This document shows positions 5,671 to 7,837 of a DNA stretch of 21,251 bases, piece by piece. The stretch lies in assembly GCF_003334255.1 (NCBI RefSeq), contig NZ_QOWU01000069.1; one strand, written 5' to 3'. Numbering within the stretch: the first letter of the stretch is position 1; every line of letters starts with the position of its first letter. Source of the DNA: Escherichia coli. Lineage in GTDB: Bacteria > Pseudomonadota > Gammaproteobacteria > Enterobacterales > Enterobacteriaceae. The notes below the pieces were generated by a model, which was given only the letters and a program-made list of their open reading frames with translations, had not been told where the DNA came from and searched no databases. A program made the translations under genes and the position numbers.

Positions 5671-6516
5671 ATGGAACATGTTCCTGTTGTTGCAGGACTT
5701 ATCATGAGGATGCGCTATCCGGAAGGCAGGGCCTGGATTGGTGGTCCGGCATTATATGCAGCAACAGGAATGCGTTTAATGGGCATCAGATCGCGGATGA
5801 TGGCGGCATTAAGTCACGACCTGAGTGAGGATGAGCGCTCTGTCATCGAGCTGGTCTCCTGCGATGATCGTTGCATAACGTTGCTTAATAGCCCTTCCCT
5901 GAACTGGTACAGCGAAAACGTGCTTGGCAACAAAGGGAATGGCAGGCTTGATGGCATGCCCGCAGTCTGGAAAAGTGAAAAAAATTTCAGCCTGCTGAAT
6001 GGTGCCGTAACGGTGCTGGCGAATGGCGATCCCGCCTGGTATTACCCGCTTTTAACCAAAACGCAGCCCCGGTTGACGCTGATGGACTTCAATATGAACT
6101 GGTTAGCCGTCAGAGGTGAAGAGCTGCGACAGTGTATCCGTTATGCGGATATTATTACCATCACCCGGCATGAGTATCACTCGCTGGGAAAACATTTTTT
6201 CGCCACCTTTCTTGCGCAAAAGAACAAATTTCTTTTAGTGAAAGCGGGGAGTCATGGAACTGAATTCATTTCCGCTGGGGAGAGAGAATTACTGCCGCCC
6301 GCGAAGCCACAAACGGTGACGATGGATGTCGGTTGTGGCGATCTGCTGATTGGTTTACTGGCTGGCTATCTCTCCGGACAATTGACGCGATCTGACGCAC
6401 TGGCCTTTCAGCAGGTAAAAGCAGGCTATCTTGCTGCACTTCCCTGGATTGCCACTCTGCTGGAGTCTGCCAGCAATGAATCCTTTATCCGGAGGTGCGT
6501 TAATGCGTTCCGGTAA
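5671..6516 (+). CDS. Ribokinase-like (PfkB-superfamily) kinase
   Basis: 281 aa; AAGGAA ribosome-binding site; N-terminal GG dipeptide region (RAWIGGPALYAATGMRLMG) and C-terminal anion-hole-like motif DVGCGDLLIGLLAGYLSG (compare DTxGAGD of the PfkB family). Confidence 0.55.
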   Translation: MEHVPVVAGLIMRMRYPEGRAWIGGPALYAATGMRLMGIRSRMMAALSHDLSEDERSVIELVSCDDRCITLLNSPSLNWYSENVLGNKGNGRLDGMPAVWKSEKNFSLLNGAVTVLANGDPAWYYPLLTKTQPRLTLMDFNMNWLAVRGEELRQCIRYADIITITRHEYHSLGKHFFATFLAQKNKFLLVKAGSHGTEFISAGERELLPPAKPQTVTMDVGCGDLLIGLLAGYLSGQLTRSDALAFQQVKAGYLAALPWIATLLESASNESFIRRCVNAFR

Positions 6517-7837
6517 TGTGGTGGTAAAAGAGAGCGGCATTGATAACGATGAGATAAATAATCAGGACGACAGAATTTTCCCGGTTTTCTTTATGTTTAT
6601 CTCGCTCGTTAACCTCATTTTTTGTCTTGGTTTTATCTTTTTTATAGATCTGAAAATTGCTTTTGTGATTGCGTTGTCATGTTACCTGTTAATCGTAGCT
6701 CTTGAACTAAAGCATAACATTAGGTCACCTGTCTCGATCTTTATGCTGATGATGTATGTGGTATTAACAATATTGTCATGGTTCGATATTTATATCGGTC
6801 ATCGCGCTGGGATTATTATTTTTACTTCGCTGGCGCTGCTGGTTGGTGGGCTTTTACTGGCGGGTAAACCATTTACCGCATTCTACTCTGCAGGGCGGGG
6901 ATTGCGATCGCTGCACTACACTAATTCTGCCCTGTGGTTGCTGGCGTATCTGCTGTCACTTTTTTTCAGTATCTGGTTTGTTCCGGAAATTGAATTTATC
7001 CTGGTTCCCTACGCGGTCTGCATTACGGCTGGCGTGGTCACTATATTGTTAAGTCTGGTGTGGTTTGGCAATGCCAATATCAGAAAAGACGCCTTTTCTA
7101 TCAATAAATTTGATTTCAAAAGAATCACCAGTAACACCGCCGAATACCAGCAATTTTTTATCGATAAAGTGCTCTCGGACGAACAGCGTGATCATCTGCT
7201 GTTAGAGGAGCTGCAACAGGAAATAGCGCATTCCACGCTGGACAGCCATGACAATGTGATGATTTTTTGCGCCTATGATGGCGCGAAGATGGTGGGATGT
7301 ATCCGATGCGTGCTGGCTCGGCAGGGGCCTCTGCCCATTGAACATGAAGCCAACCTTGATCTGCAGAATTTAAAACGTATCGGCGCCGTTATGCAGGCTG
7401 GCAGATTTTCCATTGACGAGAAATATCGGGAAAGGCCAGAAGTCATCACTGGATTATTTAAGTGCTTAATTGAGCTGGCGCTGGCGAAAGATATTTCTTT
7501 TATTGTCGGTAATGCGGCGACGCACAGGGTAACGCTGTATATGAAACTGGGTTTTCATCTGCTGTTTTCCCCATCGGATCCGCGTTCGCGCGTTAAGTTA
7601 CCGTACGGCACCGTTTGTACGCCGGTGATTATGAATTTCTCAAACCTCATCATCAAAAATCGCAGCGAGGCAAGTAAATATGGCTTTATTGATCATGTAA
7701 ATCGTTACTTACTTGAGAGATGGTATAAGCGGGCGGTGCTGCGTTATTACCTTAAAAAAGTCAGCCATCGCCCATGGGAATTAGCGGTAAAAGATATCAG
7801 GACGCGATTAAATTCAGTCGGAGGCGCTGTAAAATGA
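6503..7837 (+). CDS. Membrane-anchored GNAT-fold N-acyltransferase-like protein (N-acyl amino acid synthase / autoinducer-synthase-like C-terminal domain)
   Basis: GGAGG then ATG at 6503; the N-terminal ~200 aa contain multiple hydrophobic helices (FPVFFMFISLVNLIFCLGFIFFI, IIIFTSLALLVGGLLLAG, LWLLAYLLSLFFSIWFV). The C-terminal domain (…GCIRCVLARQ…GRFSIDEKYRERPEVITGLFKCLIELALAKDISFIVGNA…) has the pattern of acyl-ACP-dependent N-acyltransferases. Family assignment is by eye only. Confidence 0.45.
   Translation: MRSGNVVVKESGIDNDEINNQDDRIFPVFFMFISLVNLIFCLGFIFFIDLKIAFVIALSCYLLIVALELKHNIRSPVSIFMLMMYVVLTILSWFDIYIGHRAGIIIFTSLALLVGGLLLAGKPFTAFYSAGRGLRSLHYTNSALWLLAYLLSLFFSIWFVPEIEFILVPYAVCITAGVVTILLSLVWFGNANIRKDAFSINKFDFKRITSNTAEYQQFFIDKVLSDEQRDHLLLEELQQEIAHSTLDSHDNVMIFCAYDGAKMVGCIRCVLARQGPLPIEHEANLDLQNLKRIGAVMQAGRFSIDEKYRERPEVITGLFKCLIELALAKDISFIVGNAATHRVTLYMKLGFHLLFSPSDPRSRVKLPYGTVCTPVIMNFSNLIIKNRSEASKYGFIDHVNRYLLERWYKRAVLRYYLKKVSHRPWELAVKDIRTRLNSVGGAVK

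Follow-up and report, generated by a model that had tools for sequence, protein, structure and literature searches.

FeeM is a soluble N-acyl amino acid synthase of ~190 residues that acylates tyrosine with chains taken from ordinary fatty-acid synthesis. LuxI-type acyl-homoserine lactone (AHL) synthases such as LasI, EsaI and TofI (PF00765) also have a GNAT-like fold and take their chain from a loaded acyl carrier protein (ACP), and OlsB/GlsB and the N-acyl amide synthases of the gut microbiome (PF13444) depend on acyl-ACP for N-acylation as well, yielding membrane-active lipids. Enzymes of the OlsB/GlsB and N-acyl amide synthase groups are soluble or peripheral, or are joined to an O-acyltransferase domain of the PlsC type; fusion to a six-helix bundle is not known among them. 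TyzA from Mycobacterium tuberculosis and BjaI share the FeeM-like fold and N-acylate an amino acid or S-adenosylmethionine (SAM), but they are soluble and use acyl-coenzyme A (acyl-CoA) (PMC10404671). Here we analyze a gene in a 21,251-nucleotide (nt) stretch of Escherichia coli DNA (contig NZ_QOWU01000069.1 of assembly GCF_003334255.1; the whole stretch is called the window, and positions count from its first letter) that joins a six-helix membrane domain to a FeeM-type GNAT domain in a single protein of 444 residues (6503..7837, + strand), an architecture that we deduced from the translation, from an identical plasmid gene and from full-length homologues.

This protein differs from FeeM in several respects. 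It carries a six-helix domain of 190 residues in front and a basic extension of ~60 residues behind, shares only ~12% identity with FeeM, has a glutamine (Gln298) where FeeM has the active-site glutamate of strand beta-4, and is encoded together with a ketosynthase (KS), ketoreductase (KR) and dehydratase (DH) set without an enoyl reductase, whereas FeeM draws on ordinary fatty-acid synthesis. We therefore set it apart from the plain FeeM members, since it is not a soluble single-domain protein of 190-250 residues and lacks the beta-4 glutamate. With regard to the pathway, the operon resembles aryl-polyene (APE) clusters, which likewise combine an ApeP-like dehydratase, a type II KS, a KR and an ACP, have no enoyl reductase, and make an envelope-anchored product moved by a LolA-like system, a logic that we propose for this operon too. 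APE pathways, which include the acyltransferases ApeD/ApeJ, off-load their products, however, by a PlsC-type acyltransferase or a glycosyltransferase rather than by a FeeM-type GNAT fused to a membrane domain, the APE exporter is an MMPL protein rather than a LolCDE-like ABC transporter, and the adenylation enzyme for the aryl starter of APE clusters has no counterpart in the window cluster.

We propose, with a probability of roughly 60%, that the fusion is a FeeM-type, carrier-protein-dependent GNAT acyltransferase that is anchored in the inner membrane and moves a chain from ACP to an amine. The enzyme class, the FeeM family, is already known; the membrane fusion and the pathway are uncharacterized, and our literature search returned no description of an obligatory six-helix fusion, of systematic placement in type II synthase clusters or of coupling to Lol-like export.

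Domain architecture and family relationship

The fold and family relationship of the catalytic half are established by several lines of evidence. Residues 197-385 (7091..7657, +) form a GNAT-fold acyltransferase domain, within which residues 235-356 (7205-7570) match the Pfam family FeeM (PF21926; E=6.9e-8, 32.9 bits). The same family was matched individually by 51 of the 57 sequences in our family alignment (A2), whose columns provide all conservation counts given below, at E<=0.001, the best value being 3.4e-15. A search of the PDB with the 57-sequence profile retrieved FeeM (chain 2g0b_A) at E=8e-6, with the next match at 0.19; FeeM was reached only with this profile, and a smaller alignment of 10 sequences (A1) gave nothing useful against the same database. 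By structure, too, the domain has a GNAT alpha/beta fold with FeeM as its nearest relative, and AHL synthases (TofI) came lower in the list. Current RefSeq annotation already labels a FeeM domain. An earlier reading of the DNA, made from the sequence alone, had seen a pattern of acyl-ACP-dependent acyltransferases in the C-terminal part, and Pfam, the family profile and the structure comparison all agree with it. The two outcomes that this sequence-only reading had named beforehand as counting against it, a non-acyltransferase fold and a lack of transmembrane helices, were both looked for, and neither was found.

Other acyltransferase families fit less well. Acetyltransf_5 (PF13444), to which OlsB/GlsB and the gut N-acyl amide synthases belong, matched the query weakly (E=0.0066) and far below FeeM, and only two of the 57 members reached E<=0.001. 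We also considered whether the protein could be a LuxI-type AHL synthase that makes a lactone signal from acyl-ACP and SAM. The beta-4 motif of LuxI enzymes is E-x-S-R-F, and the E/Q-x-G-R-F of this family resembles it. The match to Autoind_synth (PF00765) was nonetheless non-significant (E=0.23) and was seen in no other member of the 57, FeeM scored far better, the LuxI N-terminal SAM-binding motifs were not found in a search that was not exhaustive, and, unlike LuxI enzymes, the protein is fused to a membrane domain and has no LuxR-type partner gene in its operon. AHL synthesis is thus an extremely unlikely function.

The N-terminal half is predicted to be a membrane domain of six transmembrane (TM) helices covering residues 27-185 (6581..7057, +), with both termini inside. 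Kyte-Doolittle values in 19-residue windows exceed 1.6 almost continuously over residues 23-190, with maxima of 2.0-2.6, and an AlphaFold2 model of the full-length protein contains six long helices (residues 16-47, 50-70, 76-93, 101-119, 135-159 and 164-185) as well as a short one (124-128). When modelled alone from 31 sequences, the domain reached a pLDDT (predicted local distance difference test) of 89.7 and a pTM (predicted template-modelling score) of 0.85. Hydropathy and the AlphaFold2 helices place TM1 at 6581-6643, TM2 at 6650-6712, TM3 at 6728-6781, TM4 at 6803-6859, TM5 at 6905-6979 and TM6 at 6992-7057 (all +). To these we added a loop-charge calculation for the topology assignment: across the 57 members, the net charge (K+R minus D+E) is +1.6 in loop 2-3, +2.2 in loop 4-5 and +1.7 after TM6, and -0.25, -0.7 and -0.33 in the other three loops. 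This alternation is established family-wide and, by the positive-inside rule, argues for an N-in/C-in arrangement with a cytoplasmic GNAT domain. On this prediction the cytoplasmic side, where acyl-ACP occurs, also contains loops 2-3 and 4-5 as well as the segment that links TM6 to the GNAT domain. The earlier description of the first ~200 residues as hydrophobic with several helices is borne out by these predictions.

Searched against Pfam, the membrane domain matched no family, and residues 22-195 gave no significant profile or fold match to a known family or a solved fold; a fold search of the PDB returned generic bundles only, and the significant Foldseek matches in AFDB50 were confined to the same fusion family or shortened copies of it. 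By these searches it is an undescribed domain, found only together with this GNAT. A likeness to CDP-alcohol phosphatidyltransferases that appeared in AFDB50 was rejected as non-significant (E ~1, TM-score ~0.25).

The conservation of the fusion is likewise established. A word-indexed search yielded 10 proteins, nine relatives and the query's own cluster, all of 432-460 residues and four of them of exactly 444, and an exhaustive search of 1.84 billion cluster representatives yielded 94 matches at E<=1e-3. About 55 of these 94 are 410-510 residues long and align from about residue 25 to about residue 435 down to ~20% identity, so that the membrane domain is kept in ~55 full-length relatives. 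Shorter matches of 210-280 residues cover residues ~200-420 only, which is the usual size of soluble FeeM-like proteins, and some of them may be gene fragments; matches to the N-terminal domain alone are short fragments. Members in AFDB50 come from Brenneria, Achromobacter, Candidatus Kentrum, Pelagimonas and Desulfosalsimonas. Judged by these matches, the family is rare but old, its two halves are always kept together, and the fusion is no accident of this plasmid. That such fusions are unusual, as the earlier reading had remarked, agrees with the missing Pfam family for the membrane domain, the restriction of its AFDB50 matches to the fusion family and the soluble size of the matches to the C-terminal part alone. 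Two AFDB entries, A0A0M2KEB7 (Erwinia tracheiphila, 212 residues) and A0AAP9IDK1 (Pectobacterium parvum, 178 residues), consist of the membrane domain only and are 92-94% identical to the query's N-terminal domain; they probably stem from gene disruption and do not represent a natural form of the domain on its own.

The open reading frame (ORF) at 6503-7837 (+) encodes 444 residues free of stops and ends with TGA at 7835-7837. In the gene table of the plasmid record (PLSDB/RefSeq) the same gene is a hypothetical protein that starts at window position 6476. We favor the start at 6503, because a GGAGG ribosome-binding site (6490..6494, +; read from the sequence) lies 8 nt before this ATG and because the homologues have the lengths given above.

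Conserved residues, donor and acceptor

In the catalytic half, G265, E280, G294, R309, L318, G350, F351, R406 and R410 are near-invariant, and Glu280, Arg309, Gly294, Gly350-Phe351 and Arg406/Arg410 are kept in 53-56 of the 57 sequences. Glu280 (codon 7340..7342, +; 55/57 members) lies in an L-P-I-E motif and aligns with the aspartate of L-P-M-D in FeeM; it is a candidate catalytic or amine-binding residue and a better candidate acid/base than position 298. The latter belongs to strand beta-4 and the following turn, Q298-A-G300-R301-F-S-I-D-E-K-Y308-R309 (7394..7429, +; placed by alignment), in which R309 is kept in 56 of 57. The active-site list of FeeM includes Glu94, which is equated with Glu101 of LasI (PMC9654057), and we located the corresponding position by the residue table of that review together with our own alignment: it is occupied by Gln298 in the query, by Glu in 32 of the 57 members and by Q, Y, D, H or F in the others. 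Because Gln298 stands in place of the glutamate, the chemistry may differ from that of FeeM or rely on Glu280.

The same substitution could mean that transferase chemistry has been lost or changed, so that the domain would release the chain by hydrolysis or would have no catalytic role and serve as a receptor that docks acyl-ACP at the exporter, while an RpfF-like crotonase frees the acid. RpfF enzymes can free acids from acyl-ACP, and an RpfF-related crotonase is indeed encoded in the operon. We consider this unlikely, since the conservation of Glu280, Arg309 and the other residues kept in 53-56 members suggests a working active site, and a relative at 30% identity retains the fusion but has no crotonase.

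As to the donor, the CoA pyrophosphate loop Q/R-x-x-G-x-G/A after beta-4 was found in none of the 57 members, and a deviant loop is described as a mark of GNATs that work with carrier proteins, among them FeeM and SbzI (PMC11685415). By analogy, the missing loop and the ACP gene in the operon suggest that the GNAT domain probably depends on a carrier protein, and the operon's own ACP is the likely carrier of the donor. Beyond the FeeM core, the ~60-residue extension contains a conserved basic helix, N400-x-Y-L-x-E-R406-W-Y-K-R410 (7700..7732, +; alignment and AlphaFold2), in which R406 and R410 are each kept in 54 of 57; our guess is that it docks ACP or contacts the membrane surface.

Residues E68, P76, L110, P123 and W145 are near-invariant in the membrane half, and its mean conservation peaks at 0.52 and 0.51 in the two loops on the cytoplasmic side and is lowest in the periplasmic ones (0.24-0.39). 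The first loop carries a motif at the turn between TM2 and TM3 on the cytoplasmic face, E68-L-K-H-N-I-R-S75-P76 (residues 68-76; 6704..6730, +; alignment A2), with E68 kept in 54 and P76 in 52 of 57 sequences. The second comprises the TM4-TM5 loop and the start of TM5 (residues 122-145; 6866..6937, +; alignment A2 and AlphaFold2), where K/R122-P123-F-T125-x-F-Y128 forms a short amphipathic helix that is followed by G133, H138 and W145; P123 is kept in 54 and W145 in 56 of 57. This constrained surface faces the GNAT domain, which argues for a functional contribution of the membrane domain beyond tethering.

Under our proposal, the KS, KR and dehydratase of the operon would assemble a chain in the cytoplasm on the ACP encoded with them, and the six TM helices would hold the catalytic domain on the cytoplasmic face of the membrane, where the GNAT domain would accept the chain from the ACP thioester and acylate the amino group of an acceptor with it. 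The acceptor site or the exit of the product may be shaped in part by the conserved cytoplasmic loops in the membrane half, and the amphiphilic amide would be released straight into the inner membrane. The LolCDE-like ABC transporter would extract it from there, after which it would pass to the LolA-like and TPR proteins and on to the putative outer-membrane component. With no enoyl reductase encoded in the operon, the chain is plausibly unsaturated or a polyene. The donor, the amide chemistry, the nature of the chain and the hand-off to the exporter are the parts of this scheme that we infer. The sequence-only reading had likewise named the gene as the candidate for the acyl step from ACP to an acceptor at the membrane, a role that, itself deduced, fits a neighborhood kept down to 30% identity.

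Several observations weigh against this proposal. The full-length AlphaFold2 model is of moderate confidence only (pLDDT 75.5). NCBIfam gave no match for the fusion protein at E<=0.01, and at E<=10 only TIGR03694, the PEP-CTERM/exosortase-associated acyltransferase family, at 14.8 bits and E=0.014 against a cut-off of 111.95. Gln298 aligns with the active-site glutamate of FeeM and LasI, no gene that would supply an acceptor is evident in the core cluster, and our literature search retrieved nothing under the protein accessions or on transmembrane N-acyl amino acid synthases. A FeeM-like fold, moreover, does not fix ACP as the donor, because the FeeM-like enzymes TyzA and BjaI take acyl-CoA (PMC10404671).

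As acceptor, we consider a free amino acid about as likely as the amine of a membrane lipid or a lipid-linked amine, the conserved cytoplasmic face of the membrane domain leaning slightly toward the latter. A classic N-acyl amino acid synthase would use a free cytoplasmic amino acid, as FeeM uses tyrosine, and its membrane domain would be a tether that keeps it beside the exporter so that a detergent-like product never builds up in the cytoplasm. FeeM is the closest family by every measure, TIGR03694 adds a weak likeness to the PEP-CTERM-associated N-acyl amino acid synthases, and such an enzyme would need no gene for acceptor biosynthesis, in agreement with the core cluster. It would be surprising, however, for a passive anchor to retain invariant polar residues (E68, S75/P76, K/R122-P-F-T and H138) on its cytoplasmic loops at ~20% identity; one or two helices suffice as a tether, and soluble N-acyl amino acid synthases serve exporters unfused. 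We therefore hold this account to be possible, but with the odds clearly against it.

Conversely, the protein could be a membrane-lipid N-acyltransferase, whose six-helix domain binds an amine of the inner leaflet (phosphatidylethanolamine, a lyso-lipid or an aminolipid precursor) and whose N-acylated lipid reaches the outer membrane through a Lol-like system. This is consistent with the gathering of the conserved membrane-domain residues at the cytoplasmic interface, including an acidic residue that ends TM2, with the exclusive occurrence of this membrane domain in the fusion, and with the Lol-like export module (proteins similar to LolD and LolCE, a LolA-like protein and the putative outer-membrane component). 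Aryl-polyene clusters provide a precedent for incorporating the products of type II polyketide synthases into membrane lipids (bioRxiv 10.1101/2020.12.19.423268). We regard this alternative as tentative. A bolder version, which we offer as speculation that is more doubtful still, holds that the six-helix domain is a new membrane-embedded acceptor-binding module presenting a lipid amine or lipid-linked head group to the GNAT domain, and that a polyunsaturated N-acyl lipid is moved by the LolCDE/LolA-like machine to the outer membrane. If true, a Lol-type pathway would have a small lipid instead of a lipoprotein as its cargo, on a mobile plasmid of a human gut E. coli and in common with plant-pathogenic Pectobacteriaceae.

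The amine might also be provided by a protein, with the fusion lipidating a lysine or the N-terminus of the co-encoded TPR, LolA-like or outer-membrane protein, as acyl-ACP-dependent toxin acyltransferases do. Several secreted proteins are encoded in the operon, and Lol-like machinery usually carries lipidated proteins, yet we judge this to be very unlikely.

Operon and conservation of the gene neighborhood

The fusion gene is part of a long, tightly packed, same-strand operon of 11 kb (1964-13166, +), the 5' border of which follows a strong terminator-like hairpin (1610-1632) and which ends just before an IS4 transposase gene. The first 14 nt of the fusion gene lie within the end of the PfkB-like gene, and its TGA shares the sequence ATGA with the ATG of the following TPR gene; we therefore take it to be translationally coupled on both sides. 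The earlier placement of the gene directly after the ACP/KS/DH/KR genes and before the exporter holds as far as the shared operon is concerned but not for direct adjacency: ORFs for a 312-residue protein and a PfkB-like protein follow the KS gene, and the TPR ORF precedes that of the ABC ATPase.

The chain-building genes come first. They encode a FabG-like 3-oxoacyl-ACP reductase (the KR; 1964..2689, +; NCBIfam TIGR01830, 1.2e-59), a dedicated ACP with an intact D-S-L phosphopantetheine site (YEMDSLGAV; 2780..3055, +; NCBIfam ACP matches and translation), a FabZ/ApeP-like 3-hydroxyacyl-ACP dehydratase (3039..3527, +; NCBIfam FabZ 1.9e-15, with orthologues that match Pfam ApeP-like) and a beta-ketoacyl-ACP synthase (the KS; 3520..4716, +), the closest solved relatives of which are 6kxd, 9s5h and 6qsp, presumably ketosynthases of polyene-forming type II synthases (ishigamide, aryl polyene). 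Directly 3' of the KS gene lies that of the conserved 312-residue protein (4729..5667, +; kept in loci L002, L003, L004 and L010), which is present at 31-84% identity in every cluster of the window type. It has no NCBIfam family, BLASTP against the KS gave E>=1.8, and searches of the PDB with its sequence and a five-member profile gave only non-significant matches to thiolase-fold proteins (E=0.76-1.8). Its gene occupies the usual place of a chain-length factor, and a V-S-S-S-S-T stretch could be the remnant of a KS active site without its cysteine. The gene immediately before the fusion encodes a divergent PfkB-family kinase-like protein (5671..6516, +; best PDB match the sugar kinase MJ0406, E=6e-6), which, in the enterobacterial form of the pathway, could be a modifying enzyme for either the acceptor or the product.

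Downstream of the fusion follow genes for a secreted TPR-like protein (7834..8496, +), whose position is kept in relatives, a LolD-like ABC ATPase (8496..9158, +; NCBIfam LolD at 212 bits, below the cut-off), a LolC/E-type MacB/FtsX permease (9155..10369, +; NCBIfam lolCE at 123 bits, below the cut-off, with orthologues that match Pfam MacB_PCD and FtsX), a LolA-like (TP_0789-like) periplasmic protein (10366..11109, +) and a 399-residue protein with a signal-like N-terminus and no family match, the putative outer-membrane component (11131..12330, +). As a set, the export genes (7834-12330) resemble the Lol pathway, with no obvious lipoprotein as cargo. The operon ends with the gene for the RpfF-related crotonase (12333..13166, +), which passes the cut-off of PRK08788 and scores 156 bits against a cut-off of 550 for RpfF.

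To determine how far this arrangement is conserved, we viewed nine neighborhoods, comprising seven cluster contexts and two contigs (L009 and L011) too short to include neighbors, and they establish a common setting: in every informative one the fusion lies among carrier-protein-based chain-building genes. The order KR-ACP-DH-KS-312-residue protein-fusion-TPR-ABC ATPase-permease-LolA-like-outer-membrane protein is shared with the chromosome of Pectobacterium brasiliense (fusion 84% identical) and recurs in metagenomes (fusion 41% and 57% identical) and in one genome (30%). The PfkB-like gene is missing from the clusters at 41% (L003) and 30% (L010) identity, and L010, in which the cluster is followed by a nitroreductase-family gene, also lacks the crotonase gene. 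Because these two genes are lost in some relatives that retain the fusion, the fusion belongs to the core of the cluster, and the other two are accessory.

Relatives at 23-31% identity represent a second cluster type with the order KR-ACP-GCV_T-like-fusion-KS, in which a gene of the GCV_T family (aminomethyltransferase/folate-binding) lies immediately upstream of the fusion and is preceded by the ACP gene (L006 640-1644, L007 8891-9895 and L008 9022-10008). One cluster of this type adds a malonyl transferase, additional dehydratases of the ApeI/ApeP-like kind and an ABC-2 exporter; that of L008 adds genes for an adenylating enzyme and for proteins resembling para-aminobenzoate (PABA) synthase and arylamine N-acetyltransferase. 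Clusters of this second type might give a clue to the acceptor or to a starter unit.

Plasmid context and mobility

The window is 100% identical to a 99.8-kb IncK2/Z plasmid from two E. coli isolates of one healthy human (NZ_CP060058.1 and NZ_CP060062.1), and the cluster occurs in two of 5426 complete E. coli genomes, both times on this same plasmid. An IS4-family transposase ORF (13271-14320, +; 302 bits), absent from the gene table of the plasmid, directly follows the cluster, and near the window end the DNA encodes the C-terminal half of a Tn3 transposase (19532-20896, -). Flanking by insertion sequence and Tn3 remnants, a chromosomal location in Pectobacterium brasiliense and rarity in E. 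coli together suggest that the cluster was recently acquired by horizontal transfer from Pectobacteriaceae.

N-acyl amino acids and related bacterial N-acyl amides are signaling and surface-active lipids, and some N-acyl amides of gut bacteria act on host receptors. In this locus, a catalytic domain is hard-wired to a conserved, unannotated membrane domain among all the genes expected for making, attaching and exporting a lipid, and this set appears to have moved between plant-pathogenic Pectobacteriaceae and a plasmid of E. coli from a healthy human. Its characterization would define a new family of membrane domains, reveal an orphan lipid product and show whether transporters of the Lol type can also move non-protein lipids.

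Further acyltransferase genes lie 3' of the IS4 element, encoding a GNAT protein (14778-15272), a serine-acetyltransferase-like hexapeptide protein (15739-16398) and a hexapeptide acyltransferase (18995-19477; all +). A ProQ/FinO protein and a yacAB toxin-antitoxin pair are encoded in the same region, and the genes at 14778-19477 are probably unrelated plasmid cargo.

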